Source: an uncultured Bacilli bacterium (GTDB lineage: Bacteria > Bacillota_I > Bacilli_A > RF39 > UBA660). From it: 64,000 bases of DNA. A model generated the notes under the pieces. The model was not told the origin of the DNA. It did no database searches and saw only the letters and a program-made list of their open reading frames with translations. A program made the position numbers and the translations under genes. This document shows positions 5,170 to 60,787 of the stretch, one piece after another. The stretch is from assembly GCA_947623935.1 (NCBI GenBank), contig CANQIE010000002.1:2481-66480 (forward strand). The letters run 5' to 3'. The first letter of the stretch is position 1. Every line of letters begins with the position of its first letter.

Positions 5170-5757
5170 TCCTTCATTTGAAGACGTTTTAGAAGAAGAA
5201 TTTAGCATTTCTTTTGAAGGAAGATTTAAATTATCTAAATATAAATATTCTTGCCCTTCAAACAAATAGGAGCACTTATATACATCGATCCCTGGATCAA
5301 ATAGCCATTCCGTCCACCCGTTACTGTTAAAATAAAAAGCATAAAGGTCATAGGTTCCTTGTGCAAATAAATCTTTCTTATAATACGATAGAAGAACACT
5401 ATCTCTAGGACTTACTAAAGTTTGAGGATACTTCCCTAAAAATAGGTTTTTCTTGTCTTTTGCCAGTTGATCAAAAAGTGTATCCTTAAGTTTTATCACT
5501 GGACGAATACAGGGATAACGGGCATTAATCGGAATTTTTACAATTTGAGCTCTATTATCAATGGTTACCATTTTCTTTTTAGAAAAGGTAAATTGATCTG
5601 TCCAACAAGAAATTACACCGGTATTTAAAGGACGACATCCTACATATCGTGCTAAATCAGAAGGAATCGTTTTTCTAATCTCAAGATCACTAAAAATAGA
5701 TTCAGAATCCTTAAGTAGGCTTCCAGGAATAACACTGATTTCAAAATCTTTTGTCAT
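4777..5757 (-). CDS. hypothetical protein, tandem paralog of 3738..4682
   Basis: Start set at MTKDFEIS, which has an AAAGGAGGA RBS. The C-terminal roughly 130 aa are identical to the downstream paralog. Confidence 0.55.
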   Translation of the reverse strand: MTKDFEISVIPGSLLKDSESIFSDLEIRKTIPSDLARYVGCRPLNTGVISCWTDQFTFSKKKMVTIDNRAQIVKIPINARYPCIRPVIKLKDTLFDQLAKDKKNLFLGKYPQTLVSPRDSVLLSYYKKDLFAQGTYDLYAFYFNSNGWTEWLFDPGIDVYKCSYLFEGQEYLYLDNLNLPSKEMLNSSSKTSSNEGWFKVEPIEWMVDEKNRLLIAKKALLSGIPMGSTKKVLNSYDDSFVKGYINFFMESELHLFGFDKEKERKIRSSKLKEATLTPDKRLVLIQERLRLFRQANPEHEEIIDHMLYHLSKVEEELGPGFQKIKK

Positions 5758-5818
5758 AGGGATCCTCCTTTTTTTCTTATTATAGACCAAAAACTTTTTC
5801 TGTCAAATAAAAAAGGCT

Positions 5819-7936: not shown

Positions 7937-8581
7937 TTATTTTACTTGGTCTTTTTTTAATAAATAATCTTTTACGGGTCCAAAGGTTTTTCGATGTTGT
8001 TCTAAAATGCCATATTTTTGAATCATTTCAATATGTTGTTTGGTTGGATACCCTTTATGTTTTTTAAAGCCATACATCGGATACTTTTGATCAAGTTCAA
8101 TCATCATATGGTCTCTTGTAACTTTAGCAATTACAGACGCGGCGGCAATCGAGATACTTTTGGCATCTCCTTTAATAATCGAAGTCGAGGGCATGGTAAG
8201 ATTTTCAAGTTTCATGGCATCAATTAAAACGTGTTCCGGTGTAATCTTACTATGCTCTACAGCTTCATACATCGCCAGTTTCGTTGCTTCATAGATATTG
8301 ACTTCATCTATTACTTTTTCATCTTTGATTCCAATTCCAACAGACAAAGCATGTTCCATAATATAGGAATAAAAGAGTTCTCTTTTCTTTTCCGATAACT
8401 GTTTGGAATCAGTAAGCCCTTCTAGCACAAAATCTTTAGGAAGAATCACACAAGCAGTTACAACGGGTCCTATCAAAGGACCTCTTCCTACTTCATCGAC
8501 TCCTCCTATAAAGTTAACACCTTTATTCCATAATTCTTTTTCATATTGATACAAATCAATCTTTTCTTTTTCTTTCTTCAT
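7937..8581 (-). CDS. rnhB: ribonuclease HII
   Basis: GVDEVGRGPLIGPVV motif. The start was moved to MKKEKEK, which carries an AGGAGAG RBS. Confidence 0.85.
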   Translation of the reverse strand: MKKEKEKIDLYQYEKELWNKGVNFIGGVDEVGRGPLIGPVVTACVILPKDFVLEGLTDSKQLSEKKRELFYSYIMEHALSVGIGIKDEKVIDEVNIYEATKLAMYEAVEHSKITPEHVLIDAMKLENLTMPSTSIIKGDAKSISIAAASVIAKVTRDHMMIELDQKYPMYGFKKHKGYPTKQHIEMIQKYGILEQHRKTFGPVKDYLLKKDQVK

Positions 8582-8654
8582 AGGTAACTCTCCTACTTTA
8601 TTCATTTTAGCAAATACTAAAAAAATGTCAAATAAAAAGAGTTTGAAAAAAACT

Positions 8655-9278
8655 CTACTTTATCATTTGTTTAGGGTGATCTTCCGTCATTGGAATATCA
8701 ATTTCATCTGTTGCCTTTATCACATAATCAAGGCAACCACTTAAATAGCAATCTGTAAAATCTTTTTTATGATCTATAAGTTCTTGTTTTTCCTTAGTTA
8801 AGCAATCTTTATCCTCTACTAATTTTTGTACTTCTTTTTCTTTATTTTGTTTTAAAGTACGCATGGTCTTTATTTCTTTTTCATTACGGGTAAGAAAATT
8901 AGGGTCATATTGTTTTAAGGTTTTCCTGGCTCTCAATTTATCTTTCAAATCGTACCAAATAAAGGCTATTTCACAACCTATTACTGAAGCACCTACTATC
9001 CATGGAACAGAAAAGGCTTTCAAGGTAAGAAGGCACCCCAAAATGGGAAGTGTAACGGCACTAAAAATAATAATAGATAAATAAGAAAAGGAAGCATTAT
9101 TTTTTAAAATGTAGTATTGTTGTTGATCCTTTTTTAACTCAACTTCTTTCTCTCTATAAGTTTGTTCTTCTTCCTCTTTCTTTTTAATGATTGCATCTTG
9201 TTCTTTTATTTGTTGCTCTAATTCTTTAATTCTGGCTTCTTCTTTCGTTATTTTTTCTAAATACTCACTGTATTTCAT
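8655..9278 (-). CDS. hypothetical coiled-coil membrane protein
   Basis: The N-terminus is rich in heptad-like E/K repeats, followed by two hydrophobic segments. Confidence 0.45.
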   Translation of the reverse strand: MKYSEYLEKITKEEARIKELEQQIKEQDAIIKKKEEEEQTYREKEVELKKDQQQYYILKNNASFSYLSIIIFSAVTLPILGCLLTLKAFSVPWIVGASVIGCEIAFIWYDLKDKLRARKTLKQYDPNFLTRNEKEIKTMRTLKQNKEKEVQKLVEDKDCLTKEKQELIDHKKDFTDCYLSGCLDYVIKATDEIDIPMTEDHPKQMIK

Positions 9279-9329: not shown

Positions 9330-10205
9330 TTATTTTCGATCCAGTGTAACTGGTCCTAAATAACCCTCTTTTAAATCACGAAGTAGAATCATATACACTT
9401 TATCGTAATCGGTAAGTCCTCCTTTTAAAAGAGCTCCTCTTTTCTTGGCAATTAAATCTAAGGTTTCTTCGATATTATCAAAATCAATTGTATCAATTTC
9501 ATATCGCTCTTTTAATCTTTCGGGGTAAAGGGTATACATCTTTTCTAATATGAAATAAGCAAGTTCATCTAAGTTTAAAATATCTTCTTTAATTGATGAT
9601 AGACTTGCTAAAATGTAAGCCTGTTCTTGATTTTCAAATTTAGGTAAGAGAATTCCTGGTGAATCTAAAAGTTCCATATCTTTATGAATTCGAATCCAGT
9701 TTAAGTTTTTAGTAACACCTGGTTTATTTCCTACGGAAGTTGCTTTCTTCCCAACTAAACGATTAATTAAAGTACTTTTCCCCACATTCGGAGCTCCAAT
9801 AATTAAAATACGCATCGCTCTTGGTTTAAGTCCTTTTTGTTTTCTTTTTTCTTCTTGCTCCCTTAATACTTGTTTACTCTTCTCTAGTAGTTTATCTAAA
9901 GATTTATCATGCATCAAATCAAAAGGTAAAACCATATATCCTTCTTTTTCATAATCTTGAATAAAACGATTAGTTATTTCTTTATCACAAAGATCATACT
10001 TGGTCATAATAAGTATTCGTTTTTTATCTTTTAATAAGTCATTAAAATCCTCTACCTTAGAAGAGATAGGCATCCTAGCATCAATTACTTCATAAACCAA
10101 ATCGATTAAATCTATTTTTTCTCTGATTTCCCGTTTCGTTTTAGCCATATGACCTGGATACCAGTTAATACTCGCTTTTTGGAAACTTTTTTGTTCATTT
10201 GACAT
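9330..10205 (-). CDS. rbgA: ribosome biogenesis GTPase A (YlqF/RbgA)
   Basis: INWYPGHMAKT motif and circularly permuted GTPase motifs (NVGKST...). The start is at MSNEQ, 1 nt after the stop of the upstream KilA-N gene. Confidence 0.85.
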   Translation of the reverse strand: MSNEQKSFQKASINWYPGHMAKTKREIREKIDLIDLVYEVIDARMPISSKVEDFNDLLKDKKRILIMTKYDLCDKEITNRFIQDYEKEGYMVLPFDLMHDKSLDKLLEKSKQVLREQEEKRKQKGLKPRAMRILIIGAPNVGKSTLINRLVGKKATSVGNKPGVTKNLNWIRIHKDMELLDSPGILLPKFENQEQAYILASLSSIKEDILNLDELAYFILEKMYTLYPERLKERYEIDTIDFDNIEETLDLIAKKRGALLKGGLTDYDKVYMILLRDLKEGYLGPVTLDRK

Positions 10206-10206
10206 T

Positions 10207-11049
10207 TTAATCACTACCTTTTTCATTTAATAATTTAATTTTTTCTGCATTATTAAGTATATCTAATTGATATTTACATATATCACTTAATATTTCAAAT
10301 CTTTCTTCTTTTGATTTTCCTTCTTTAATTAACTCAGCATTATGTGATTCTAAATTAGATAAAACAGTTAATTCATTTATGGAAGCATAATCTCTTACAT
10401 TTGAATTTTTAGCTAACTCTGGATTTAATTCTCTCCATTTTTTAGCAGTGGTATGAAATAATATTACATTGAGAATATCTGCTTCTTCAGCATATTTTAA
10501 CCATTCTTTATTTTTATAAAAATCATTATCAGGTAAAATGTAATTTTTAATTGCATCTGTATGAATTAAATAATTATTCTTTGTAAGTATTCTTTTTACA
10601 TCCCATTCTCTATTTTGATTTTCTAGTTCTTTTAATCTTTCAAATTCTTTTATTAAATATAATTTAAATACAGGACTTATTGCAGATGCAAATTCAAAAG
10701 CAATATCTTTATGTGCATATGTTCCACCATATTTACCCATTTTAGAATATATTCCAATAGCATTTGTTCTTTCACACCACTCTGTAACACTAGGTGTAAA
10801 TGTCAATAAACCAACCTGTTTTCTAAAGTGTTCAGATTCGAACACTTTAAAATTAGGATTATAAATTTGTTCCCAAGTAGTTAAAAAATCTAATGTGCTT
10901 CTATTTCGCAACCAATTCCTTATAACATCTGCAGCTCTTGAATTACTACTTTTTGCTTTTGCTATATCTGAAATACAAATATAATCTTTTTCATTTATAT
11001 TGGTTACATTTATTCTGACATCTTGGACTTCTATTATTTTGTTAGACAT
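10207..11049 (-). CDS. KilA-N domain-containing protein
   Basis: ICISDIAKAKSS...VIRNWLRNRSTLDFLTTWEQIYNPNFKVFE resembles the KilA-N DNA-binding domain of phage Bro/KilA proteins. AT-rich. Confidence 0.5.
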   Translation of the reverse strand: MSNKIIEVQDVRINVTNINEKDYICISDIAKAKSSNSRAADVIRNWLRNRSTLDFLTTWEQIYNPNFKVFESEHFRKQVGLLTFTPSVTEWCERTNAIGIYSKMGKYGGTYAHKDIAFEFASAISPVFKLYLIKEFERLKELENQNREWDVKRILTKNNYLIHTDAIKNYILPDNDFYKNKEWLKYAEEADILNVILFHTTAKKWRELNPELAKNSNVRDYASINELTVLSNLESHNAELIKEGKSKEERFEILSDICKYQLDILNNAEKIKLLNEKGSD

Positions 11050-11116
11050 ATATTCACCTTCTTTTTCTTTATGGTTAATACTTATTTTTTGGAAACTTTA
11101 TAATTTAATTATATCA

Positions 11117-12337
11117 CTATTTATCAGATTTATATACTACTTTGACTCTATTTTTATCAAATATTTCTATTTGTTTTATATATTTATTTACCAAATTCTT
11201 ATTAAGTTTTTTATAATCCTTTTTATATTTATCATTAAAATCAACAAGTAACAATTTTTCTAAAATATCTTTCCTTATTGATTTTAAATTACAACCTATT
11301 TTACGATATGAAGATTTGCACCAATAATAATATATTCCTTTTGCTTTTCTTCTATAGAATTCGCTATGACATTCACCACATCTAATTTTAGTTATTAATA
11401 ATTCATTTTCCTCTTGTACTATATCAGAAAAGTTTAATATATTTTGAACTGTTTGAAATATTTCTTTATCAATTATTGGTTCATGATGGTTCTCGCATAT
11501 TTTCCATTCTTCTGGATTTGTTTTAATTACTTTTTTAAATTTTCTCATTGGTTTACGATTTTTACCTTGAATAAGTGTTCCTATATATGTTTCATTTTTT
11601 AATATTTCATTAATTATAGTATTGTTCCACTTTTTGGATTTAATTGTTTTATTGCTAGTTACTTTAGTTACCTCACTTTTGTACCTCGATGGAGTTAGTA
11701 TACCCTCCTTGTTTAGGATATCAGCTATTTCATTTTTACTTTTACATTCTAATGTCATATTAAAAATTCTTTTAATAATACTTGTAGCATAATCATCAAC
11801 AATAAACTTATGACAATCATTTGGATCTTTTAAGTAGCCGTAAGGAGCAGAAACGCCAATAAAGTCGCCTTTTTTCTGTTGAAGATGTTTAACTGCAGAG
11901 ACTTTTTCAGAAATATCAACTGCATAATGTTCATGTGTTAAATTTAGTAAGGCAAATTCTAAAGTATCTGTATAATTACTATCTTTAAGACTATCTAATT
12001 TATCATTAATAGAAATAAATCTAACACTATGTTTTGGAAATTCTTCACCCAAATATACTTTAACCCATCCAGTATCTCTTCCGAATCTAGACATATCTTT
12101 AACTATTACACAATTTATTTTTTTCTTCACTATATCAAAACATAATTTAACAAAAGCTGGTCTATCAAAATTAGTTCCAGTATAACCATTATCTACATAA
12201 TAATCTACTAACTCAAAATCACTATTATCTTTTATATAATCTTTAATTATGCTTTTTTGATTATCAATACTATCAGATTCATTATAACTATCATCTTTAG
12301 ATAGTCTTATATAAGCACCAACTTTATACTTTGACAT
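11117..12337 (-). CDS. large serine recombinase (resolvase/invertase-type catalytic domain, recombinase domain and zinc ribbon)
   Basis: The N-terminus carries YIRLSKDD...VIVKDMSRFGRD, the serine recombinase catalytic region. The C-terminus has CGECHSEFYRR...YYWCKS, a zinc ribbon. The start is at MSKYKVGAY, which has an RBS. Confidence 0.8.
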   Translation of the reverse strand: MSKYKVGAYIRLSKDDSYNESDSIDNQKSIIKDYIKDNSDFELVDYYVDNGYTGTNFDRPAFVKLCFDIVKKKINCVIVKDMSRFGRDTGWVKVYLGEEFPKHSVRFISINDKLDSLKDSNYTDTLEFALLNLTHEHYAVDISEKVSAVKHLQQKKGDFIGVSAPYGYLKDPNDCHKFIVDDYATSIIKRIFNMTLECKSKNEIADILNKEGILTPSRYKSEVTKVTSNKTIKSKKWNNTIINEILKNETYIGTLIQGKNRKPMRKFKKVIKTNPEEWKICENHHEPIIDKEIFQTVQNILNFSDIVQEENELLITKIRCGECHSEFYRRKAKGIYYYWCKSSYRKIGCNLKSIRKDILEKLLLVDFNDKYKKDYKKLNKNLVNKYIKQIEIFDKNRVKVVYKSDK

Positions 12338-12723
12338 AGTTATCACTTCTTTCATTATTATATCAAAAAAGTAGGATTTCTCCTACTTATAACACAAATC
12401 AATAAAACTTTTATTCTTTAACATTACATCCGTTAGCTTGTTCTACATATAATTGGAAAATTTGTTCAACTATTTTATCAAAATTATATTTTGAATCTTC
12501 ATTTTTATCATATTTTTTTACACAAAAAAACACACCTAAAAAGATGCGTAAATTAATTAAATTTTGTATAGTTTCACTGTCGTAATCAGTTGTCTAATTC
12601 CTAGTCAAAAAAGTAGTAATTTTTGCCATTTTTATCATTTTTTATCAATTTTTAGAGCTTTTTTAATAAAATCGTGTAAGATTTAATTTCCTGCAATTCC
12701 TTTATTTATAATGGTTTATAACG

Positions 12724-12773
12724 GGGTTGCAATAAATCGTAATCAACCAGTTGATTACGGAATTATGCAACCC
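12724..12773. repeat. 50-bp imperfect palindrome, GGGTTGCAATAAATCGTAATCAAC-CA-GTTGATTACGGAATTATGCAACCC, a candidate serine-recombinase att or target site
   Basis: Read directly from the sequence: 24-bp arms with perfect 10-bp inner and 8-bp outer matches around a central CA dinucleotide, about 390 bp upstream of the recombinase gene. Confidence 0.5.
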
Positions 12774-12803
12774 TTGTTCTCCACTATTACTCATTTTTAT
12801 CAC

Positions 12804-13460
12804 TCACTTTTTAATTTCCGTTTCTATAATCCACTTAATATCTTCAATTGCTTTATCCATATTAAAGATTCCATTCCCTACGGGATAGTAGACTGGATAC
12901 ACTTTGTAGCTATTTCCATTTACCTCTAACAAATGAGGCGTTTTGCGGTTTTCGGAAACAGTTATTTTTTTATTTAAGATAATCGATGATACCTGGTTTC
13001 CAAAAGTAATAATTACTTTAGGTTTAATGATATCTATTTCTTTAAATAATAAATTTAAGTATTTTCGTAATACTTCATCCGATAAAGGTCTTGCATCTAG
13101 TTGAGTACATTTTCCTAAATTAGTAATAAATAATTTATTTCTAGCAATTTTCTCATACACCTCATCGCAAAATGCATAATCCCAATCTTTAGGTTTCTTT
13201 ATTATAATTTCATCAAATACTGTTTCTTCTAGTAAACCCACTTGATAAAATAACTTCCATATGTTTTTAGTTCCAAGCCAAGGCGATTTCCTGCCTTCCC
13301 AAGATTTAGAACTAGCAATATTTTTCCCCGTGGGATTCATGAAAACAAAACAAATATCAGGATTTTCTTCACATCCACCATTGTATATCGAATCTAGTTC
13401 TTTAGCTCCATATTTCATTTGTAGCTTATCATATTCTTTTTTCAAATCCTGTATTTTCAC
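12804..13460 (-). CDS. uracil-DNA glycosylase superfamily protein
   Basis: Its length and the motifs FVFMNPTG...NLGKCTQ...ITFGNQV fit the UDG fold of the family 4/5-like groups. AT-rich. Confidence 0.45.
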   Translation of the reverse strand: MKIQDLKKEYDKLQMKYGAKELDSIYNGGCEENPDICFVFMNPTGKNIASSKSWEGRKSPWLGTKNIWKLFYQVGLLEETVFDEIIIKKPKDWDYAFCDEVYEKIARNKLFITNLGKCTQLDARPLSDEVLRKYLNLLFKEIDIIKPKVIITFGNQVSSIILNKKITVSENRKTPHLLEVNGNSYKVYPVYYPVGNGIFNMDKAIEDIKWIIETEIKK

Positions 13461-13733
13461 GAGTCTTCACCTTCGTTTTTATAAATTTTCTATAAATCTT
13501 AATTTTTATCTTCTTTTTATCTTCATTATACTAATCTTATAATTATTTAGCTCATATTTATTTTTAATTATGGTAAATTACCCTAAATTTAAATTAGAAT
13601 TATGAAGAGCCTATCATAATTTGATTTAAATATCTCTGTAATAGAAATACCATTTTCATTATATATTTCAGTATAATTAATTGCTTGTCTTAACCAAACC
13701 TCAGCCTTACATTCATTGCAACCTTTATCACGG

Positions 13734-14229
13734 TTAATACAATAAGGGCAATAGCCATTTATCTTTATAATAAGTATTTCCTAAATCTTTTATTAAAGTA
13801 AAATCCATTTTTTCGAGAAGAAATTTAGCATTAACATATTTCTCTCCCCAAGCCTCGTATAGAATTGGTTCTTGCACCTTATCACAGCATAAATGCATTA
13901 ATTTACTCCCTATTCCTTTCCTTTGAAAAGAGGCATCTACAACTAGATATAAAATCTCTCTATAAGAAGTTATATCCAATTGGTAGAAGAAATCATTTTT
14001 AATATTGCTAATACCACAAGCCCCAATAATTTTACTATCATTGGTACATACATAATAATTAGAAATATCTTTTGCAAGTTCTTCTTTATTTTTTTCGGTG
14101 ATTTCTTTTAAAGATGCGATTCGATTGGCATTTTTTGAACATTACAGGTTCCTAATTCTTGGGAAATAAGATGGGCTATTGCATCTAGATCTTTCATCGT
14201 TGCTTTTCTATATTTAAATTGGGTCATGC
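13734..14229 (-). pseudogene. GNAT family N-acetyltransferase, frameshifted
   Basis: The N-terminal 39 codons (MTQFKYRKATMKDLDAIAHL...) end at a stop. The reading frame then continues in another frame (KEITEKNKEE...FQRKGIGSKLM, the GNAT motif A). The shift occurs at an A6 run near 14105. Confidence 0.55.
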
Positions 14230-14996: not shown

Positions 14997-15509
14997 TTAA
15001 TTTTTAACCCCAATTCGATTGAATGGAAATAAAACTAAATTAGCAGAGCCTTTAATTTCATCTTTTGAGATGAAGCCAAAATACCTTCCATCGTAGGAAT
15101 CCGTTCTATTATCGCCTACTACAAAGTACATATTGTCAGGCACTACTTCGGTATCAAATTTACTGAAAGTAAAATCATCGGTCATTTTGTGTTCAAAATT
15201 TTCTTCTACTTTTTGGTCGTTAATATATAACGTATTATCTTTATACTCTACTTTTTCACCCGGAAGACCAATCACTCTTTTGATAATATCTTCTCCTTCG
15301 TGATGCACCACCACAATATCGAAGCGATGAACGTCATTAAAGTAATAATGAACTCTACTTAAAATCATCAAATCGCCATCGTGTAAAGTAGGACTCATCG
15401 AAGTACCACTTACCGAAACGGTCGTTACCACGAACATTTTTAATAAGACAATAGCCACAATGACTAATACATAAGGCAATATAGATTTAACTATTCTTTT
15501 TGTATCCAA
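14997..15509 (-). CDS. lepB: signal peptidase I
   Basis: SGTSMSPTLHDGD (Ser box) and GDNRTDSYDGRYFG (Lys/box E), the bacterial P-type signal peptidase. Confidence 0.85.
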   Translation of the reverse strand: MDTKRIVKSILPYVLVIVAIVLLKMFVVTTVSVSGTSMSPTLHDGDLMILSRVHYYFNDVHRFDIVVVHHEGEDIIKRVIGLPGEKVEYKDNTLYINDQKVEENFEHKMTDDFTFSKFDTEVVPDNMYFVVGDNRTDSYDGRYFGFISKDEIKGSANLVLFPFNRIGVKN

Positions 15510-19685: not shown

Positions 19686-20519
19686 TTAGGCTCCTACTGG
19701 TGCTTTATCAGCAGCATATACATTAAGTCTAACCGAGAAAGTTTTACCATTGGTTCCACGTTCACTTAATTTACAATCTTTACTTTCATCTGTCATAGAA
19801 GAAACGGTTGTATCATCTGTTATTTCACATTTACATTCAGCGTCTTTTCCATCCTTAGTACAAACATCATTAAACATATTTGTCTTAGTGTCATTAGAAG
19901 TAATGGATTCTGCACCTTTATCCTCATCATAATAATGATCAGAGAACCACATTTGGAAACGATAATAATGAGAATCTTGATTATTATCTTTATCATTTAA
20001 ATCAGCAGATTTAAATGTTCCACTATATAATTTCTTTTGTTTAGCATTTCCATTATATGTATCTAACTCATTAAAGAATTTAGCTTGAACTACATCTTCA
20101 TTATATGTTCCTTCCGTAGCACCTTTCTTTAAACAAAGTCTTACATATTTAGACTCTAATGTTTTTACTTTATCTGGATCCGTAGATTCCTCAACTACTA
20201 TATCATACGAAATATCCATATTTCCTTTAATAGTAGAAGTTACATTAAATTCAAAACTTTCATTTTTACTGTCTACAGCTTCATTCGATACTTGACTATC
20301 TGATATAGGCATCGCATTTGTTAATTCTATTCCTGCTGTTTCTTCATTATACTTAAATACTAACGTACCTGTACTAATGGTATTTTCAGTAGATCCTTGT
20401 CTTGAATAAGTAAAGAACGCAAATGACACTCCTATTACTGCTACTACTAAGATGGCTACGGCTAAAACAGATAATAATACTTGCCGTCCAGTATTATTCT
20501 TATTATTTTCCTCGTACAT
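19686..20519 (-). CDS. TasA/camelysin-like surface protein family, short member (no FGE-like domain)
   Basis: The N-terminus has a TM anchor and FAFFTYSRQGSTENTISTGTLVF, matching the SipW-cognate signal and TasA/Peptidase_M73 N-domain pattern (GTFAyFsD...NtfaaGTLdL). It ends FSVRLNVYAADKAP. Confidence 0.55.
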   Translation of the reverse strand: MYEENNKNNTGRQVLLSVLAVAILVVAVIGVSFAFFTYSRQGSTENTISTGTLVFKYNEETAGIELTNAMPISDSQVSNEAVDSKNESFEFNVTSTIKGNMDISYDIVVEESTDPDKVKTLESKYVRLCLKKGATEGTYNEDVVQAKFFNELDTYNGNAKQKKLYSGTFKSADLNDKDNNQDSHYYRFQMWFSDHYYDEDKGAESITSNDTKTNMFNDVCTKDGKDAECKCEITDDTTVSSMTDESKDCKLSERGTNGKTFSVRLNVYAADKAPVGA

Positions 20520-20539
20520 TTTTCTCATATCCTTTCTAT

Positions 20540-20738: not shown

Positions 20739-22802
20739 TTATTTTTTAATAGGAGCAAGCACTAAGCGAAAAGAGGCTCCACATGCTCCACCATCAGTAT
20801 GTCCAAGATTAAAGATACCCGAAAGTCCGCCCCCGGAAGAACTACCACCACGGTTGAGCCATGGAGCAAACGTGTATACAAACATAGCTCTAGCTTTATG
20901 CCATCCAGCTGTCTCTGATAGGGCATGACCATAACATGCTTCCCCATCACATGCTGTTGCCATTTTTGTAGTATCATTTGTTGTATTGGTTGGATTATAT
21001 AAATCATAATATTTGGAAACTGGTAATTCTCTTCCCTCAGATACTGATTTTCCATCATTTAATAAACCATTAAATCCAGAATTAGAATCCATAGTCGCGC
21101 CACTTCTTGAGTTTCCACTATCATCTGCTAAAACACCCATGACAGAATCACCTGATCCACCACTCATATCATATACTCCTGTGATATTTCCTGTAGTAGA
21201 TGCTTTTTGACCTTTACTTGTTTCATAAGTATTTATGTCACAAGTATCAGCACTTTCTTCTGCTTTTGCAGAATCTCCCGCTATTCCTGTAATCTTTTTA
21301 GAACAATTGTTAATATATACTGCCTTTTCATCAATTCCATAAGCATCATTTCCATATTTTCCATACTTACTTTGAGATAAGTAGGCAACTGAAGCCCATT
21401 CACTACTCTTACTCATATGTGTATCATAACTGGTTTGACTACTAGAAAATCCATAAATATTATAATTTGTTGTTTGCATCCTTCTACTTACTTCAAAAGC
21501 AGTTGATACACGGATTCCCTTCCATGAAGTTACATTCGGTTTTATTTCTGGAGTATACGTTTCTTTATCACAGCCAGTATTTACTGAACCACTTGCTGCG
21601 ATACATTCTTCTTTACTACTTGGTTCAAACTTTGCAAACCATATCCCTGTTAATTCATCACTTCCAAAAGTAAAGGCTGGATGCATCTTGTAATTATTTC
21701 CATCACTTACTTGTTTATCTGTTCCTTCTATAAAGTTTATTTCAATTGCTCCTGGATTTTCATAACAATTAAATGGAGCGATTCCAGGTGATGTACAAGT
21801 TTCTGAATCTCCTTTTACATCATTTATGCTTACATAGTTGTATTCATATCTTGGGATCCATACCCACATCGTGTTGATATCATTCATATCAATTACTGTT
21901 CCTGGTTCTGCATCTTGATATTTCTTTCTTGTTGTTGCACTTACTCCATCCGCATCTAATCCTATCGTTACTGCATTCGCCCATTCTTGTATATCATAAT
22001 CATACCAGTCTTTATATAAGTCTGCTTTTCTCCATTCTCCATCTCTATAATAGACTGGTATTAATCCTTCCACTAAATCTGGTGAATTGGCTCCACTTGC
22101 ATCTTTGTATATTGCTGGTTCTCCTGGTTCTAATAATTCTCCATTTTGTGCATATACATTTACTCTTACAGAAAAACTCTTACCATTATACTTCCATGAC
22201 CCATTTACTACTTTATCTGCTTCTTCATCTATCCACATTCTAAACCGATACGTTTCACTATAATTCTCTTTTCCCGCTACTACCGTTCCTTGATATAAAG
22301 TCCTTCCTTCTTTTCCTTCTAATACAGGTACCTGACTCATTTTTAATTTATTATATAAATTAATGCCTTGACTATTAAGAGTATCGCTTACTGGCTCTTC
22401 ACTTTCTAATCCCTCTGTATTCGTTACTCTTGTTAAATAAGTTTTTACGGCATATTCTGGTAAAGTAGATCCCTCTTCTTTGGTTAGATAAATTTCATAA
22501 TTGATATCTGCTCCTTGTGTTGTTGCTTTGATATCAAAATCGAATACTCCTTCTCCTGTTTTATCTAATTTTGTTCCTTTATCATCACTTGTTGGAAATG
22601 CATTCGTTAAATTTACTCCATTCTTTTCTGCTCTTTTTTCATCATAAATAAATGTTAATGTTCCTGTATGTAATGTATTCTCTGTTGTTCCTTGTCTTGA
22701 ATACTGAAAGAAAGCAAAAGTTGTTCCTACTGTGATTAATACTAAGCTTAATACGAGTAGACATACAGCAATGAGTTCTTTTATATTTCTCTTTTTTTCC
22801 AT
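20739..22802 (-). CDS. TasA/camelysin-like N-domain plus FGE (SUMF1/EgtB/PvdO)-like C-domain surface protein, 687 aa
   Basis: The N-terminus is KELIAVCLLVLSLVLITVGTTFAFFQYSRQGTTENTLHTGTLTF. The C-terminal region carries EWASVAYLSQSKYG, GNITGVYDMSGGSGDS, CYGHALSETAGW, RGGSSSGGG and ...GASFRLVLAPI, in the same order as the FGE motifs (EWEYAARGG / GLYDMSGNVWEW / RGGSW / GFRCV). Confidence 0.6.
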   Translation of the reverse strand: MEKKRNIKELIAVCLLVLSLVLITVGTTFAFFQYSRQGTTENTLHTGTLTFIYDEKRAEKNGVNLTNAFPTSDDKGTKLDKTGEGVFDFDIKATTQGADINYEIYLTKEEGSTLPEYAVKTYLTRVTNTEGLESEEPVSDTLNSQGINLYNKLKMSQVPVLEGKEGRTLYQGTVVAGKENYSETYRFRMWIDEEADKVVNGSWKYNGKSFSVRVNVYAQNGELLEPGEPAIYKDASGANSPDLVEGLIPVYYRDGEWRKADLYKDWYDYDIQEWANAVTIGLDADGVSATTRKKYQDAEPGTVIDMNDINTMWVWIPRYEYNYVSINDVKGDSETCTSPGIAPFNCYENPGAIEINFIEGTDKQVSDGNNYKMHPAFTFGSDELTGIWFAKFEPSSKEECIAASGSVNTGCDKETYTPEIKPNVTSWKGIRVSTAFEVSRRMQTTNYNIYGFSSSQTSYDTHMSKSSEWASVAYLSQSKYGKYGNDAYGIDEKAVYINNCSKKITGIAGDSAKAEESADTCDINTYETSKGQKASTTGNITGVYDMSGGSGDSVMGVLADDSGNSRSGATMDSNSGFNGLLNDGKSVSEGRELPVSKYYDLYNPTNTTNDTTKMATACDGEACYGHALSETAGWHKARAMFVYTFAPWLNRGGSSSGGGLSGIFNLGHTDGGACGASFRLVLAPIKK

Positions 22803-26927: not shown

Positions 26928-29435
26928 TTATTTTACTTTTCTTTTGGTCTTTTTATTAGAAATAAAATGATTTTCTTTGATGTAAACTCCGATTACGAAA
27001 AGAAGGGTTATTCCTGAGATGATTTTTCCTTCTTTAAATAAAGGAGCTTGATAACTAATTTCAATTTTATGGCTTCCTTCAGAAATAGGAAAGCCTAAGA
27101 AAGCCGTATTTACGATTTCATAAGGCGTATTAACACCATCTACTAAAACCGTAAAGCCAGCATCATACGGAATACTTGTAATAAAATAACTATTCTTTTT
27201 AGCAGTAATTGTACCTTCAATATAGTCCTCTTTTACTTCTATATTTTCCATTGGAGTAATTCGTTTTTGATAATTGGTAAGCAAATTCATATCTAGTAAA
27301 TAGGTTTTAACATTGGTTAACTCATAAGCTCCTTTTGTAAAAGTCAAAGTCAAAGAAGATAAGTCATCATTACTTCCTAAAGGATAATAGAAAGTATGAT
27401 TCCTGTTTCCATAGGTATAAAGATCACAACTTTCTTGATTCGTAACACCGTTAATCTCAATGATTCGACGGTCACTTTCTTTACAAGCAGAATCCTTGGT
27501 TAAATCGAAAGAAAGAAGTAAAACTTTATCTTTGATGTTTTTGTTAAGCGACACTTTCTTTGTCTCTTTATCGTTTAAAATGATATGTAATCCTTCAAGT
27601 TGTTCACTAAGTCCTAAATCTACTTCTTGTAAATGTTGGGTGAACGAAGTGTTATAGACGGTATCAACCACCGCATACTCAAGAAGCGTTGCTATGTTAT
27701 CCGTATATTTTAGAGAATTAAAAAGCGAAGTTGGAAACAGCTGATCACTAGCATAGAACAAAGGAAGGACTTGATCACTTTGATATAGATTTAGGCTACT
27801 TCCTTCTTCTTGTAAGGTATAACCTAACGGAGTATTTTCAGCAATCACATATTTTACACCCATGTAAGATAAGAAAAGTGGATTGAGACTATTTGCTAAC
27901 ATTAAATAATTTTCTTCACTTTGAGGATTTTTCATAATATCAAAATAGAATTTACGATAAGATGGATTTTGAACTGAGCCATAAAGTGAAGTGGTATAGT
28001 AATTGGAAGAATAGACCTGATTCATGGTATGAAAGACATCGTATACCGTGTTCATTCGGTAAAGTGAATTATCTTTGGTCTCCGTTTCCATCACAAAATC
28101 CCGAATTTCATTTTCTTCATAACTTGTATTCGTATCCATTGAAACATAGGCTTCACTTCGATTGATTACAATACAAAGAGGAATTGTAATTAGTAAAGGA
28201 TAAATGAGAAAGCATTCATATTTTTTCTTCTTTTGATAAAAGACAAGAGCTAAATACGTGAAAATTACATCAAAAATAAACAGAATAAGATAATTTTGAT
28301 CTAGCATATGTGTAAAAAAGACAATTAAAATAGGAATTAAAAGAAGTAGTCCTACTCTTTTCCAAGGAAGGGTTTCCTTCTTTTTTTCAAGTTTTTCTAA
28401 AAAGCAAGCTGTTAGTAAAAGCACTAGTGGAATAAACGGAATAAAGACTTTTCCTCTTATATAAAGTCCACCATTTAATAGATAAGAAATCAAAGGAATA
28501 GTTAAGAGAACTACTAAGGAAATAGAAAGTACTTTCTCTTCTTTTTTAGAAGAAAATAGGCTAACTATTAAAGCAAGGAGACAAAGAAGGGATAAGCCCA
28601 TGGTATAGGAATGATACAAAAGATTCCATCCACTTAAATCGGGTAAAAGAGAAGTAATAGGAAATGCTTTTTCCATACCACTTCTTCCACTCATAATAGA
28701 AGAAAAGGCTGGAAGCAAAAGGAAGGAAGCAAGAAGGATACCTAATCCCATCGCTAGTAAAAGATAGACAAATTCTTTTTGAAATAACGTTTTTAATGTT
28801 GTTTTTTTATCTTGGTATTTTAAATAACTATAATAGAGAACAAGAACAAATAGACAAGGAATTCCATAATAGAAACTGGTTAAAAAAATAAGAAAAGTAG
28901 AAATCGTTAATAACGTTGTTTTATGATTCCGAAGGAAGGATTCTACTCCATAAAAGCCTAAGATTAGAAATGGAAAATAATTGACAAACATGAACTGTTT
29001 ATGAAAGTGATATAAAAGTGGACTGGCCGTTAAAAATAAAAGAGATGTTACTAACGCAATAGGAGAAGGGATTTTTTTATGTTCTAAAAAGAAATAGAAA
29101 AAGATAACGGTTCCTAAATAAGTAACAATATTAATGATTTGTAAATACGTCGTCATCGAAAGAAAAGGAAAACAAAAAGACAACAGTAACCAAGGCGAAA
29201 AAAGTCCATAATAGGCTAATGAAAAAAGATTGATGCCGCTTCCCAAATGAAGGAGAAAATTAGGAAATAAATGTCCCGTTTCATAGAAAAGACTCCTAAA
29301 ATAGGTAGCAAAAGTAAGATGTTGATTGAACCAATCGATATCGGATCCAAAAAGATAATATCCTCCTTTGGTACCTATAATCAGTAAAAGTCCAATGGTA
29401 ATAATTAAAAGTACATTTAAATATTTTTTCTTCAT
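26928..29435 (-). CDS. YfhO-family membrane glycosyltransferase (835 aa)
   Basis: About 13 N-terminal TM helices plus a large C-terminal extracytoplasmic domain. The N-terminal pattern YLFGSDIDW...SGINLFSLAYYGLFSP is YfhO-like. Confidence 0.7.
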   Translation of the reverse strand: MKKKYLNVLLIITIGLLLIIGTKGGYYLFGSDIDWFNQHLTFATYFRSLFYETGHLFPNFLLHLGSGINLFSLAYYGLFSPWLLLSFCFPFLSMTTYLQIINIVTYLGTVIFFYFFLEHKKIPSPIALVTSLLFLTASPLLYHFHKQFMFVNYFPFLILGFYGVESFLRNHKTTLLTISTFLIFLTSFYYGIPCLFVLVLYYSYLKYQDKKTTLKTLFQKEFVYLLLAMGLGILLASFLLLPAFSSIMSGRSGMEKAFPITSLLPDLSGWNLLYHSYTMGLSLLCLLALIVSLFSSKKEEKVLSISLVVLLTIPLISYLLNGGLYIRGKVFIPFIPLVLLLTACFLEKLEKKKETLPWKRVGLLLLIPILIVFFTHMLDQNYLILFIFDVIFTYLALVFYQKKKKYECFLIYPLLITIPLCIVINRSEAYVSMDTNTSYEENEIRDFVMETETKDNSLYRMNTVYDVFHTMNQVYSSNYYTTSLYGSVQNPSYRKFYFDIMKNPQSEENYLMLANSLNPLFLSYMGVKYVIAENTPLGYTLQEEGSSLNLYQSDQVLPLFYASDQLFPTSLFNSLKYTDNIATLLEYAVVDTVYNTSFTQHLQEVDLGLSEQLEGLHIILNDKETKKVSLNKNIKDKVLLLSFDLTKDSACKESDRRIIEINGVTNQESCDLYTYGNRNHTFYYPLGSNDDLSSLTLTFTKGAYELTNVKTYLLDMNLLTNYQKRITPMENIEVKEDYIEGTITAKKNSYFITSIPYDAGFTVLVDGVNTPYEIVNTAFLGFPISEGSHKIEISYQAPLFKEGKIISGITLLFVIGVYIKENHFISNKKTKRKVK

Positions 29436-30901: not shown

Positions 30902-32323
30902 TTAGGATCCTATAAGAGCAAGCACTAGCCGGAACGCGCCACCGATAGCCGGAGCGCCGGTGCTAGAGTTGAAGCTGAACACACCTGCGTGCGTACTATC
31001 ATCATAGTAGTCGCCACGAGTGGACCACGGTCTCGCAGAGCTTACATAAATATGATAATCTCCATACCAAGTTGAAGTTTCTGATAATGCATGACCGTAG
31101 CAAATTATTCCATTACATGCTTTTGCAACATCATTCCCACTATACGAATCATAATACTTAGCTTCTGGTATTTTGTTACCTTGAGCTTCGCCAGAAACAA
31201 ATCCAGATGATGCTACTATAATTGGTTTCCCTGAATTGCTACTATCTTCCAAAACACCCATTACTCTTTCCCAGGCATTACCACTCATATCATACACTCC
31301 TGTGATATTTCCTGTCGTAGATGCCTTTTGTCCTTGTAATGTATCATAGGTGTTTTTATTACAGGTGTTAGTACCCTTTCTTGCATTTGCCGCATCCCCT
31401 GCTATTCCTGTTATACAATTCGAACAGTTATTATTATATACTTCTTTGTCATTTTCTCCATAGGTGTCATTTCCATATTTTCCATACTTACTTTGAGATA
31501 AGTAGGCAACGGAACCCCATTCACTATCTTTACTCATATGCGTATCTATTTTTTCACCTTTAAATCCATAGGTTGATGCCTTTGTTGAATTCATACTTAA
31601 TGAAGCATAGAAAGCATTTGATATATTTATCCATCTCCATGATACTACTCCTGGTTTTATTACTGGAGTTAAATTCGAATTATTAGCAGGTCCATCATTA
31701 AATATTTGTTCTTCATTGCTTGTTTCAAACTTTCCATACCAGAATCCTGTTAATTCATCACTTCCAAAAGTAAAGGCTGGATGCATTTTATAATTATTTT
31801 CATCACTTACTTTGCTGCTTGTTCCATTGATAAAGTTGATTTCTATTTCTCCAGGTTTATTTATATTTTGTCCTATTGTTTCCATATTAGTATAGTTATA
31901 TTCATATCTTGGTATCCATACCCACATGGTATTAATGTCATCCATCTCTATTGGAGTATCTGGTACCGCTTTTTGATATGTTTCTCTTTGTTTAGTTCCG
32001 CCATCTTCATCTAATCCAATGGTTACAGCATTCGCCCATTCTTGATTACAGTAATTGTACCAATTGGCTGTGTTAGCATTCGCTTTCTTCCAGGTTCCTT
32101 CTTCATCAGAAATTGGAAAAGCATTCGTCAGACTTACTCCATTTTTGTCTTTTCTATTTTCATCATAAATAAAGGTTAATGTTCCTGATTCTAATTTATT
32201 TTCGATTTGTCCTTGTTTTGAATACTGAAAGAAAGCAAAGGTGGTTCCTATTGTAATTAAAATAAGACTCAATACAAGTAAACAAACTGCAACTAGTTCT
32301 TTCTTAGTCCTTTTCTCTTCCAT
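30902..32323 (-). CDS. TasA/camelysin-like plus FGE-like surface protein, 474-aa member
   Basis: Start at MEEKRTKKELVAV, which has an AAGGAG RBS. Carries TFAFFQYSKQGQIENKLESGTLTF and GNITGVYDMSGNAWERVMGVL (the closest match to FGE GLYDMSGNVWEW), and ends FRLVLALIGS. Confidence 0.6.
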   Translation of the reverse strand: MEEKRTKKELVAVCLLVLSLILITIGTTFAFFQYSKQGQIENKLESGTLTFIYDENRKDKNGVSLTNAFPISDEEGTWKKANANTANWYNYCNQEWANAVTIGLDEDGGTKQRETYQKAVPDTPIEMDDINTMWVWIPRYEYNYTNMETIGQNINKPGEIEINFINGTSSKVSDENNYKMHPAFTFGSDELTGFWYGKFETSNEEQIFNDGPANNSNLTPVIKPGVVSWRWINISNAFYASLSMNSTKASTYGFKGEKIDTHMSKDSEWGSVAYLSQSKYGKYGNDTYGENDKEVYNNNCSNCITGIAGDAANARKGTNTCNKNTYDTLQGQKASTTGNITGVYDMSGNAWERVMGVLEDSSNSGKPIIVASSGFVSGEAQGNKIPEAKYYDSYSGNDVAKACNGIICYGHALSETSTWYGDYHIYVSSARPWSTRGDYYDDSTHAGVFSFNSSTGAPAIGGAFRLVLALIGS

Positions 32324-32430
32324 AACTTCACTTCTCCTTTTATTATTTATAGTTTCCATTATAGTTTGTTTTTATTATTAAAACTTCAAAATTAACTAAA
32401 AAGAAACTGTTTTTATTCTATGTTTACAAT

Positions 32431-34134: not shown

Positions 34135-34165
34135 CCTTCCCTAAAAGAGGAAGGTTATTTTTTAT
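34135..34165 (+). terminator. rho-independent terminator (AACCTTCC-ctaaaaga-GGAAGGTT followed by T6)
   Basis: 8-bp perfect stem. Confidence 0.65.
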
Positions 34166-34653
34166 CCATTATTAGGAATATGCCAAGTTATTTGATTAGG
34201 ATTTACATTTTCAATGTCTAAATGCCATTCAAGTATATGATTCCCATTTGGAGGTACAGTAATTGTATCAAATTTTTTACTGTCAAGATATTCTTTTTCT
34301 GTACTAAAAATATCTAAAGTAAAGTTTTTTAATTCTAGAGGAGTATTGTCATGATTAGCTATCAATACGTAAACATCACTTGTTTTATCATCATTATATT
34401 GAACAATTGTGCCTGTTTCCCAGCCATTCTCCCTTTTTAAAGTAAAATCTTCTTCTGTTATAGTATCTGAATTGGTATTTGAAGGAGTAGTTTCTTGAGG
34501 TTGATTCATGGATGGTTGATTTATATATGGATTGTTATCATTCGAAGGTGTTTCAGTTACTGATTTATTATTCATTAATAAATAAACTCCTAGTACAATT
34601 AAAATAAGCGCTAAAAACAAAACAAGGAACAAATATTTATTTTTTTCTTTCAT
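34162..34653 (-). CDS. hypothetical N-terminally anchored protein (163 aa)
   Basis: Signal-anchor followed by an N/Q/P-rich linker. Lies 15 nt downstream of the prepilin-type gene, so probably co-transcribed. Confidence 0.5.
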   Translation of the reverse strand: MKEKNKYLFLVLFLALILIVLGVYLLMNNKSVTETPSNDNNPYINQPSMNQPQETTPSNTNSDTITEEDFTLKRENGWETGTIVQYNDDKTSDVYVLIANHDNTPLELKNFTLDIFSTEKEYLDSKKFDTITVPPNGNHILEWHLDIENVNPNQITWHIPNNG

Positions 34654-34668: not shown

Positions 34669-36480
34669 TTAACAAGATGGCCAAGACCAATTGTCGTCGG
34701 CACAATCACCATAACAATTTTTATATACGTCATATGAAGCAGGAGCCTCCCAACATGCGTAACCACCATCTCCAGCCGTACGTCCTCCAAAGCAGCAGTG
34801 TGTTCCACCACCTCCGCCAGAACTTTCACACGCATGAGTATTACAGCTAGATGATCTACTAGTTGATCCGCAAGAAGAAGCGAAGAAAGAATCATATTTT
34901 GTACCACTTTGATACTGAGTTCCACCATCGCAGTCTCGATCACAGCTACTCCAGCCGCCCCATGAGGTAGTCGTTTGAGAACAATATTTATATACATTAT
35001 AAGAAGAATTATAACTTCCAATGTTTCCTGCTTGATCTTCTACAAAAGCATAAAAGGTAGTACTTCCTCCATCATAATCACGTCCAGTACTTAGAGCACG
35101 ACTTATATTAGAATAAGCAATCCAGTTACAATTGTTCACATTTGGTGAAGTTTGAATACACATACGTGTAACTCCAGGAACTGCATCTGTAGCATTTACC
35201 GATAAATTTGCAATGTTTGTATGGTATCTTGTATCTTGTGAAGAAACCGTTAAATGTACTACTGGAACGGTTGTATCAATTCGAACTGTTTGGTTGGCAG
35301 GACAAGTTGTTTCGTTACCAACCTTATCTCGTACCACACCCGGTGATTCCTTGGTCGAATCGATATCTGTATTAATAACTCTCGTAACATTTGCTGCACA
35401 TCCACTTCCTGAATCACTACAAGTACCTAAAAGAGTTCTACTGGTATTAATCCAGGTACTGTCTCCTCCAGAAGAGACACAAGAAGGATTGGTTTGATCT
35501 ACCGATACAGTATAATCGATTGCTGTACTTTTATTACCAAAATTATCAACTGCCCTTACATATACTTTTTGATTAAAGTCATGTGAACCATTATTTAATT
35601 TTGCTAATAAATCTTTTTGTGTAATCGAATCACTTGTCGTATAGGTCCATAAGTTACTATTGTTCGGTTGATTTGAAAATGAGTATTCATATCCTTTTAC
35701 ACCTGAACCCATGGGTCCATCTGTAGCATTAAAAATTTGATATACATCATTTTTAGTCCAACCTCCATTATAAATCGTTCCTGATAAACTATTTTCTCTT
35801 AACACCACATTAATCATATTAGGAGATGTAACATCGAGCACTTTAACTTCAATACTAATGGGCTCTGCATTTAAATAATAATAAGTTAACGTATAAGTCG
35901 TTAAAACATTTGTATCGATATAGCTAGGAGTCGATCCTATATCACTTCGAACAAGTTCGCCATCATAATAATAGGATGCAAAAGGGGCTATAAAAGGTTC
36001 CCCTTGAATTACTTCATAGTAGGTTTTATCAATGGTTAGATACCCATCTTTTCTACTACCTATACCACTTCCATTGCCCTCTTCTTGACTCGAAGAAAAA
36101 TCACAAGAACTATCACTCTCATAATTATCACATTTAAGACAGGTTAAATAATCTAATTTATCCCCTTTCGTTACTTCTACATAACCTATACAATTTTTCT
36201 TAGAAGTACTTTGTGGTTGATCAATATATTTCAAATTAACCAAATTTGATAAATCGACTTTTCCCTTATCTCCTTCACTAATGGGAGTTAAAGTATGATG
36301 ATCCATATAGTAGTCTCTTCCTGCTAATTCCACTAAACGCGTAAGATTAGAATAATACCTTTGATCAACATCTCCAAAAGAAGCAGATAACGCAGGAATA
36401 GCAATCAAAGCAATCACTCCTAAAATAACAATAACTCCTAAAGTTTCTACTAATGTAAATCCTTTTTTATTTAGATGCAT
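34669..36480 (-). CDS. prepilin-type N-terminal cleavage/methylation domain protein (603 aa) with a Cys-rich C-terminal region
   Basis: The N-terminus MHLNKKGFTLVETLGVIVILGVIALIAIP is a canonical class III (type IV pilin/pseudopilin) signal. The C-terminal 100 aa hold about 20 Cys, including WGGWSSCDRDCDGGTQ. Confidence 0.7.
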   Translation of the reverse strand: MHLNKKGFTLVETLGVIVILGVIALIAIPALSASFGDVDQRYYSNLTRLVELAGRDYYMDHHTLTPISEGDKGKVDLSNLVNLKYIDQPQSTSKKNCIGYVEVTKGDKLDYLTCLKCDNYESDSSCDFSSSQEEGNGSGIGSRKDGYLTIDKTYYEVIQGEPFIAPFASYYYDGELVRSDIGSTPSYIDTNVLTTYTLTYYYLNAEPISIEVKVLDVTSPNMINVVLRENSLSGTIYNGGWTKNDVYQIFNATDGPMGSGVKGYEYSFSNQPNNSNLWTYTTSDSITQKDLLAKLNNGSHDFNQKVYVRAVDNFGNKSTAIDYTVSVDQTNPSCVSSGGDSTWINTSRTLLGTCSDSGSGCAANVTRVINTDIDSTKESPGVVRDKVGNETTCPANQTVRIDTTVPVVHLTVSSQDTRYHTNIANLSVNATDAVPGVTRMCIQTSPNVNNCNWIAYSNISRALSTGRDYDGGSTTFYAFVEDQAGNIGSYNSSYNVYKYCSQTTTSWGGWSSCDRDCDGGTQYQSGTKYDSFFASSCGSTSRSSSCNTHACESSGGGGGTHCCFGGRTAGDGGYACWEAPASYDVYKNCYGDCADDNWSWPSC

Positions 36481-37689: not shown

Positions 37690-38730
37690 ATGAACTTAGA
37701 ATTCATTAAAAAAACTTTGGAAATCTTATCTTTGAACGATTATAAGATAGATGATCATAAAAAAGACATCATTCTTAGCCAAAATCCTTCTATTACCATT
37801 AATTATATATCAAATAGTTCTATTACAATGAGAGGAAAACTTCCTTACGATTTACTTTCAAAAATAGAGTATCAATTTAATATACGCTTTTGGGAAATTT
37901 GTAATAAAACGTATTGTATATGCATCGGTGATTGGGGCGAAGAACCAGAAAACTTATTAATTTTTTTATCTTGCCTTAAAGATTATTTTAATCCAGATAC
38001 AAAAATGCCGACTAATATTTCTAATCTAGATAGAAATCTTAAAGAAGTAATAAACTTTCTTGCCAATCAAATGAATCTTGCTCTTTCGCTTGATGAGTGG
38101 TTAACGTCTTCATCCATGTCTAAAATACAAGAAAGTATCGAAGAAGATAAAAGTACGATTTTTGGAAGATATTTTCGAAATGCTTTAACAGATTTTGATC
38201 AAATGGTAAACCCTTCTTATATAGATGCAAAGGATTTTTTAAAAGACTATATCGATGGCAAAGGAAAGATTAAATTCCATTGGAGTGACATGGGAGAAAA
38301 AGGCATCGTATCTTTTTCTTATCACGATTCTAAAAAAGGCATTAAAACTGCTTTTGAAAGATCTGCTGATTGTTTTCAATGTTATTTATCCGTTTCGCAA
38401 AGAGCTAATCAAGAATACCAGATAACACATCAAATCACCAAAGAAGATGGAGAAAAAATATGTGTCTACAGAAAAGACAATGAAAAAATAGAAAGACGGG
38501 TCTACCAACTTACTTATGGTACTTTTGCTAAAGACGAAAACGCTCCATTCTATCCTGCTCCTAAACCCAATCGGCCTATGACTCCTTTAGAACGAGATCA
38601 ATTATATGACCAACTAGTACAAGTTAAGAAAATAATCGATGAAGATGTAATGACCAAGGTTCAAGAAAATCCTGCTTTACAGTATGTGTATCGTAACCCT
38701 AAAGTGAGAAGTAAAAAATCTACCTCTTAA
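37690..38730 (+). CDS. hypothetical protein, paralog A (346 aa)
   Basis: GAAAGGAGGATACCT-ATG RBS. The C-terminus RPMTPLERDQLYDQLVQVKKIIDEDVMTKVQENPALQYVYRNPK is shared with 38776..39795. Confidence 0.5.
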   Translation: MNLEFIKKTLEILSLNDYKIDDHKKDIILSQNPSITINYISNSSITMRGKLPYDLLSKIEYQFNIRFWEICNKTYCICIGDWGEEPENLLIFLSCLKDYFNPDTKMPTNISNLDRNLKEVINFLANQMNLALSLDEWLTSSSMSKIQESIEEDKSTIFGRYFRNALTDFDQMVNPSYIDAKDFLKDYIDGKGKIKFHWSDMGEKGIVSFSYHDSKKGIKTAFERSADCFQCYLSVSQRANQEYQITHQITKEDGEKICVYRKDNEKIERRVYQLTYGTFAKDENAPFYPAPKPNRPMTPLERDQLYDQLVQVKKIIDEDVMTKVQENPALQYVYRNPKVRSKKSTS

Positions 38731-38775
38731 TTAGATTGTTATTATCGATAAAAACATTTCAGAAAGGAGAATCCT

Positions 38776-44727: not shown

Positions 44728-44728
44728 G

Positions 44729-45592: not shown

Positions 45593-45593
45593 G

Positions 45594-46454: not shown

Positions 46455-46455
46455 G

Positions 46456-47331: not shown

Positions 47332-47332
47332 G

Positions 47333-56113: not shown

Positions 56114-56194
56114 AGTATATGTAAAGAAGCCTTAACTTAGAAAAAGAAAAGCATAACCATTTCTCATTTTTTCATTTCTTTCACCAAAGAAAAA

Positions 56195-56236
56195 ACAGTA
56201 CAAACAACATGTACTGTTCTTTCCATAGCCTCTAAT
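56195..56236 (-). terminator. rho-independent terminator (AACAGTACA-aacaaca-TGTACTGTT, T-rich 3' tail on the minus strand)
   Basis: 9-bp perfect stem downstream of the family gene and orphan fragment. Confidence 0.5.
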
Positions 56237-60731: not shown

Positions 60732-60787
60732 AGGTCACTCTCCTCTTTCATTTTATGAAGAGGATTTTTTTCTATACCCAAAGAAAA

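Follow-up and report, generated by a model that had tools for sequence, protein, structure and literature searches.

What kind of protein joins an N-terminus resembling that of the biofilm-fibre protein TasA to a C-terminus resembling FGE, the sulfatase-modifying factor? The question is raised by gene A, located at 20739..22802 on the minus strand of a 64,000-nucleotide (nt) stretch of contig CANQIE010000002.1 (hereafter, the window), which belongs to the assembly GCA_947623935.1 of an uncultured Bacilli bacterium. A first-pass annotation had read its product as a matrix-fibre-like scaffold displaying an FGE-like module and had called this a previously undescribed surface architecture. The open reading frame (ORF) and its quoted N-terminus (VGTTFAFFQYSRQGTTENTLHTGTLTF; 687 residues) are real, and that reading stands at the level of folds and motifs, but it missed the organizing principle. 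The last ~40 residues of the C-terminal lectin domain are the variable region (VR) of a diversity-generating retroelement (DGR), and the architecture is not new, being that of a known class of DGR variable proteins. Taken as a whole, the evidence makes it probable that gene A belongs to a DGR-diversified lectin family, of which the local DGR module is a remnant.

A template repeat adjoins a paralog of gene A

Three paralogs of gene A are found in the window, all on the minus strand: genes B (56646..58625, 659 residues), C (30902..32359, 485 residues) and D (19686..20528, 280 residues). A blastn comparison of paralog 3' ends with the window showed the final ~130 nt of gene B to be present again at 56393..56522 on the minus strand. 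This 130-nt copy lies on the same strand as gene B, ~125 nt past its stop codon, is non-coding (it is preceded by an open frame of only 46 codons) and pairs with the last ~40 codons of the gene, namely the VR of B (56655..56786, minus strand), in a 130-nt gap-free alignment showing 71.5% identity. Read in the VR frame (TNPWFKRGGNYNDGTNAGVFNFNNNNGNANSNNSFRLVLAP), it carries 13 Asn (AAY) codons, and it is the only AAY-rich segment of its kind in the window. An Asn-codon-rich, non-coding second copy beside its target is the feature by which a DGR template repeat (TR) is recognized. Mismatches between the TR and the VR of B are concentrated at TR adenines, as they affect 21 of the 36 adenines versus 16 of the 94 other bases (odds ratio 6.8; Fisher p = 7e-6).

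Genes A and C match the TR weakly. The VR of C (30914..31030, minus strand) is 65% identical to the window TR, with 18 mismatches at adenines and 20 at other bases over a 117-nt core. The fossil VR of A (PWLNRGGSSSGGGLSGIFNLGHTDGGACGASFRLVLAP; 20751..20866, minus strand) preserves the scaffold seen in VRs of the family, but it lacks one codon relative to the TR and shares 55.7% identity with it, 19 of 51 mismatches falling at adenines. When 11 TRs were compared, the VRs of both B and C matched the window TR best, and the possibility that the VR of B was written from a different TR was thus rejected. The VRs also stand out as GC islands within AT-rich genes: their GC content is 0.59 in B, 0.58 in C and 0.48 in A (0.52 for the TR), versus 0.35 for the body of gene B and 0.34 for those of A and C.

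The TR is part of a larger RNA unit. Between the VR and the TR of gene B, sequence inspection and RNAfold point to a GC-rich hairpin with a T-rich loop (CCCACCCC ... GGGGTGGG; 56586..56620, minus strand), which is kept at the same position in four related loci (L029, L053, L055 and L044) and may serve as a target-recognition element and/or a terminator. No GC hairpin and no TR were found downstream of gene A. Directly 3' of the TR lies a structured RNA (56225..56375, minus strand) resembling the RT-14 motif (Rfam RF02921), which matches the full-length model at 40.4 bits (E 2e-4 to 8e-4), below the gathering threshold of 48.1. In L044, the corresponding RNA 3' of the TR reaches 55.6 bits, which exceeds the gathering threshold, and the post-TR sequence is conserved in L055 and L065. 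The element is presumably the priming or reverse transcriptase (RT)-binding part of the DGR RNA. The RT motifs described by Weinberg et al. adjoin RT genes, and one of them, RT-10, stands between phage BPP-1's TR and its RT gene (PMC5737381). The unit closes with a terminator-like hairpin followed by a T run (ACAGTACA ... TGTACTGT; 56189..56219, minus strand; sequence and RNAfold), although a simple promoter/terminator consensus scan made no call around the TR, this hairpin included. Beyond it are yabP/yqfD, at the place occupied in relatives by the MutS-like, Avd and RT genes. None of these three genes was found in the window by tblastn and a motif scan.

Complete DGRs serve the family in other genomes

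In five other loci (L055, L065, L081, L082 and L084), complete DGRs carry TRs homologous to that of the window, and these cassettes prove that a DGR system serves the family. In L055, the target VR and TR are accompanied by a MutS-like ORF, an Avd gene (NF033474, E 5e-20) and a 363-residue RT with IGNYTSQ...YMDD motifs, and 22 of the 26 TR/VR mismatches fall at adenines. In L065, which carries Avd, all 10 mismatches do so, despite an RT that is split into two ORFs (8154..9187; 150 and 125 residues). Either this RT was inactivated very recently or the split results from faulty assembly. The other three are JGI contigs with the order TR, MutS-like, Avd, RT, recovered through a degenerate TR pattern that hit six loci in JGI metagenomes; an exact-match scan of these metagenomes for the window TR yielded none.

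L055 and the three JGI contigs show the same target-TR-MutS-like-Avd-RT order as architecture D of Wu et al. 2018, a survey whose passages considered here also describe FGE-sulfatase-type targets and remote targets (PMC5758913). The window differs from this architecture, as do L044, L053 and L086, in that the TR and its RNA element lie beside the target with no MutS-like, Avd or RT gene nearby. Stand-alone TR-VR modules of this kind are not mentioned in those passages of the survey, in which remote targets are the nearest case.

The signature of adenine-directed variation extends to the whole family. In an alignment of 123 proteins, mean entropy reaches 3.49 bits at positions whose TR codon contains an adenine, versus 1.38 bits at adenine-free codons (p = 1.4e-7), and it is exactly the adenine-free TR codons that encode the invariant residues of the scaffold (AGVF, G, SFRLVL).

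By analogy with the relatives, in which this mechanism is seen, the following would apply to the window genes. A non-coding RNA made of the TR and the RT-14-like element would be reverse-transcribed by an Avd-assisted DGR RT, which would misincorporate opposite template adenines. The resulting cDNA would replace the VR, so that ~17 ligand-contacting codons (AAY and others) would be randomized while the adenine-free scaffold codons would stay unchanged. In the window itself, the module of gene B would be a decayed remnant and genes A and C older fossil targets, the paralogs now diversifying mainly by duplication and recombination.

A very large family of exported proteins

Gene A encodes, in order, an N-terminal signal/anchor with a TasA-like motif, a jelly-roll domain and a C-terminal FGE-type C-type-lectin domain (residues 246-687; 20742..22067). 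Gene B shares this two-part layout. Alignments show that gene C is devoid of most of the N-domain, its signal/anchor and TasA-like motif being joined almost directly to the lectin domain, and that gene D consists of the signal/anchor and jelly-roll N-domain only, with a Cys-rich insertion and neither lectin domain nor VR. The earlier description of this last neighbour as the N-part alone was thus correct, as was its list of C-terminal motifs shared by three members: EW(G/A)(S/A)VAYLSQ, GNITGVYDMSG, CYGHALSET, RG(G) and FRLVL occur in the same order in A, B and C.

Such sharing is far beyond chance, because gene A is 55-59% identical to B and C, because a homolog search returned 2912 matches at E<=1e-3 (with a Pfam domain in almost none of them), and because an exhaustive phmmer comparison with cluster representatives identified 3165 clusters (at 50% identity) at E<=1e-3, including 669 at E<=1e-30. 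All genomic matches are in metagenome-assembled genomes (MAGs) of uncultured gut 'Bacilli/Tenericutes', and single MAGs may hold more than 20 copies. An exact look-up of protein A returned no database record. Some giant relatives carry 2-10 copies of the lectin domain, for example P0124 (3713 residues), P0136 (4516 residues, with 10 matched lectin stretches) and P0114 (941 residues). Genes A, B and C, together with the truncated paralog D, therefore belong to an unnamed, very large family of proteins exported by uncultured gut Bacilli.

Exchange between family members also appears to be recent. The closest homolog of A (P0001; 9909..11398 in L079) is 96% identical to it at the nucleotide level over 1056 nt, a block comprising 95 nt upstream and the 5' half of the gene, beyond which identity drops to ~75%. 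As its genomic context also differs from that of A (a sortase gene adjoins it), this pattern indicates that the N-terminal half was probably recombined or transferred recently.

Many DGRs and C-type-lectin targets are phage-encoded, and the window does contain a serine recombinase gene next to a KilA-N gene at 10207..12355, which could suggest that the four genes are receptor-binding (tail-fibre) proteins of a prophage with its own DGR. Gene context led us to reject such an origin, which we regard as highly improbable: all four genes have an N-terminal signal/anchor and each stands singly among housekeeping genes (rlmB-like, AI-2E-family transporter, dtd and relA genes around A; rplU-rpmA and yabP/yqfD around B, yabP being identified by Pfam), no phage structural genes are adjacent, and the copies are scattered where single MAGs hold more than 20 of them. 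The recombinase stretch is on the minus strand; the recombinase is a large one, with Resolvase, Recombinase and Zn-ribbon domains, and the region 10000..14000 has a GC content of only 25-27%. It is probably a small integrated element.

The C-terminal domain is an FGE-type lectin fold without the FGE cysteine pair

A C-terminal C-type-lectin fold of the FGE subtype that carries the VR is a feature of DGR variable proteins, and it is what we observe here. The claim of an FGE-like C-domain is thus upheld as regards the fold, but not as regards membership of the enzyme family. None of the family proteins of the window has a Pfam or NCBIfam match above threshold. For FGE-sulfatase (PF03781), the best match in the window is that of gene C, at 17.7 bits versus a gathering threshold of 23.3, genes A and B have no match in the Pfam scan, and the weak matches found in 13 of 50 homologs are all below threshold.

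In FGE, a Cys pair located after the RGG motif binds copper. No conserved Cys pair was seen at this place in the family, where the segment concerned is the hypervariable VR. The family does have a conserved C-x4-C (CNGxxCYGH), ~25 residues upstream of RGG, which we take not to be positionally equivalent to the FGE pair, judging from FGE sequences. A catalytic FGE function was rejected because the Cys pair is missing, and the protein is not a sulfatase-maturation enzyme. The family thus differs from the FGE/SUMF1 family as a whole, which includes non-catalytic members such as PvdO and GldK/PorK, in both its sub-threshold matches and its lack of the copper-binding pair.

The closest known systems are the DGR variable proteins TaqVP of Thermus aquaticus (PDB 5VF4), TvpA (2Y3C) and Mtd (1YU0). 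Sequence identity with TaqVP is only 21%, and profile searches of PDB sequences gave matches at E~1 only, to 5vf4 and PvdO. In comparison with these three proteins, the window family has an additional N-terminal extension of the lectin domain (~190 residues; SGANxPxLVEGMIPV...INTMWVWIPRYEY), a signal/anchor and a jelly-roll stalk, and its local copy is without RT.

The likeness to TasA is confined to the leader

Following the signal peptide or signal anchor, the jelly-roll would form a stalk under the lectin domain. A different reading would see in these proteins TasA-like, SipW-processed subunits of a matrix fibre, polymerized by donor-strand exchange and displaying an FGE-like module, with no relation to retroelements. 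In all N-domain subtypes, a G-(S/T)-(S/T)-(F/Y)-A-x-F motif directly follows the hydrophobic segment and is itself followed by G-x-L, so that the C-region of the signal peptide and the first strands resemble those of TasA (GTTFAFF..(12)..GTLTF versus GGTWAAF..(12)..GTLDL). Three homologs (P0087, P0098 and P0118) pass the threshold for Peptidase_M73 (PF12389; 24.5-25 bits versus 22.5), and hhalign aligned the N-domain profile to a TasA sequence with 48% probability. In addition, the equivalent of the TasA donor strand (residues 27-68) has low confidence in the monomer model (pLDDT <50), and an aromatic P2' residue disfavours LepB-type cleavage of TasA (PMC10269814).

The same comparisons set the limits of this likeness. 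No window protein matches Peptidase_M73 at E<=1 or the SipW-cognate signal TIGR04088, for which P0098 reaches 15.7 bits versus a threshold of 19, and the Peptidase_M73 matches cover profile positions 12-89 of 196 only. The 43 columns aligned by hhalign correspond to the last part of the signal peptide plus ~35 residues at the start of the mature protein. An N-domain profile searched against PDB sequences returned noise only. Although the fold class is a jelly-roll in both the family and TasA/camelysin, and the archaeal bundling pilin AbpA ranked 10th in a Foldseek search (E 5.6e-3), the match spans fewer than 90 residues with no significant structural match to TasA. The TasA likeness thus does not extend beyond the signal peptide and ~45-80 initial residues, after which the N-domain is a generic jelly-roll.

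The window contains a single signal peptidase (14997..15509), which is P-type (TIGR02227, 161.6 bits) and scores 26.4 bits with the archaeal/SipW-type model, below the cutoff of 51.85, in agreement with the observation that no sipW-type peptidase is present. Neither the window nor 79 other loci (L001-L079) yielded a SipW-like ORF, although tblastn with a SipW query is a weak test. We found no paper combining DGR with TasA/camelysin terms in the literature searched. Fibre formation by the family is a candidate function only, and we consider a fibre with no link to retroelements improbable.

A decayed module or an enzyme acting in trans?

That the family is DGR-diversified says little about the present state of the module of gene B. 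It is probably a decayed or dormant remnant, because the MutS-like, Avd and RT genes are absent from the 64 kb and because the TR and the VR of B have drifted apart at non-adenine positions. Alternatively, the module may be alive: RT and Avd, possibly together with the MutS-like protein, would be encoded at another place in the genome and would rewrite the VR of B, and perhaps that of C, in trans. In that case, a single enzyme would act on several dispersed TR-VR modules. In experiments, Avd, TR and RT do function in trans, and remote targets have been described (PMC5758913).

Several observations fit such an enzyme and weigh against decay. The TR is intact and AAY-rich, and the downstream RNA is largely preserved, its own terminator included, which is not obviously expected under free decay. 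Target-TR modules without RT recur in other MAGs (L044, L029, L053 and L086), and in two of them, L029 (12 of 15 mismatches at adenines) and L044, mismatches are ~80% adenine-specific. Furthermore, an RT cassette (L065) and, apart from it, an RT-less module (L053) coexist in the MAG Lapin-028__bin30. The recurrence of RT-less modules, the adenine specificity of two of them and the above-threshold RT-14 element of L044 keep a trans-acting RT a live alternative. Surface location and ligand binding, for their part, would follow from the signal sequence and by analogy with solved DGR variable proteins.

Other observations speak for a remnant. Non-adenine mismatches amount to 43% of the 37 between the TR and the VR of B, versus 0-20% in active-looking relatives. 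The window RT-14-like element, besides its sub-threshold score, has a broken outer stem. The other module known to have no RT within 10 kb on either side, that of Lapin-028__bin30 (L053, 11170..11700), which is followed by rpsF and ssb, is also degenerate: 19 of its 31 mismatches are at adenines, with one indel and a stop codon in the TR frame.

The VRs of B and C are moreover identical in the other assemblies in which we found them. An unchanged protein B is encoded by 4-5 other contigs, and one of these matches the window at 100% identity over 7980 nt, while strain variants of C (P0071 and P0121) differ only outside the VR, as do variants of P0001. Ongoing VR diversification between populations was thus not seen in the few other assemblies compared, which form a small sample. 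The contigs with an identical gene B may share one study or host population, and for this reason they are weak evidence for a static VR. On balance, we consider rewriting in trans unlikely, though clearly less so than the fibre reading. Combining the two, with private, self-terminated TR-RNA genes served by one RT-Avd-MutS-like locus in trans and lectin heads carried by TasA-like subunits polymerizing through donor-strand exchange, is doubtful to the same degree as the fibre reading itself; if true, it would amount to a hypervariable adhesive fibre.

Other features of the window

The window contains several other unusual genes. At 34669..36480 (minus strand), a 603-residue protein has a prepilin-type N-terminal methylation motif (N_methyl and ComGC-like matches), weak Ig-like matches and a Cys/Gly-rich, TSP1-like C-terminus, and is followed by a small secreted protein at 34162..34653. 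Five tandem paralogs of ~290 residues (MERGDNMDDFELT...) occupy 43834..48181 (minus strand), and the one scanned has no Pfam match. Multi-copy families are found at two further loci, 3738..5790 (minus strand) and 37690..39795 (plus strand), and include two ~320-residue paralogs whose C-terminal halves are identical, as well as two paralogs of ~340 residues; in each family, the one member scanned has no Pfam match. Three tandem paralogs of ~280-290 residues lie at 59859..62500 (minus strand), two of which are annotated as DUF3419 in an identical contig (L080). Finally, there are two large polytopic membrane proteins on the minus strand, at 26928..29435 (YfhO, E 4.5e-66) and 48349..51054 (YfhO-type by eye only).

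Implications for the family and for DGR surveys

Within the known DGR variable-protein class, the family forms a very large unannotated branch, which has a TasA-like leader and an unusual TR module devoid of RT. A mechanism can thus be assigned, along with a likely role (that of surface proteins with variable ligand binding), to a family that has no Pfam assignment in spite of its thousands of clusters and its high copy number in single MAGs of gut Bacilli. The RT-less target-TR-RNA modules either show successive stages of DGR decay in a clear series or are evidence for DGR enzymes that act in trans with several templates. Both outcomes matter for the extent to which targets and templates are undercounted by DGR surveys that start from the RT.
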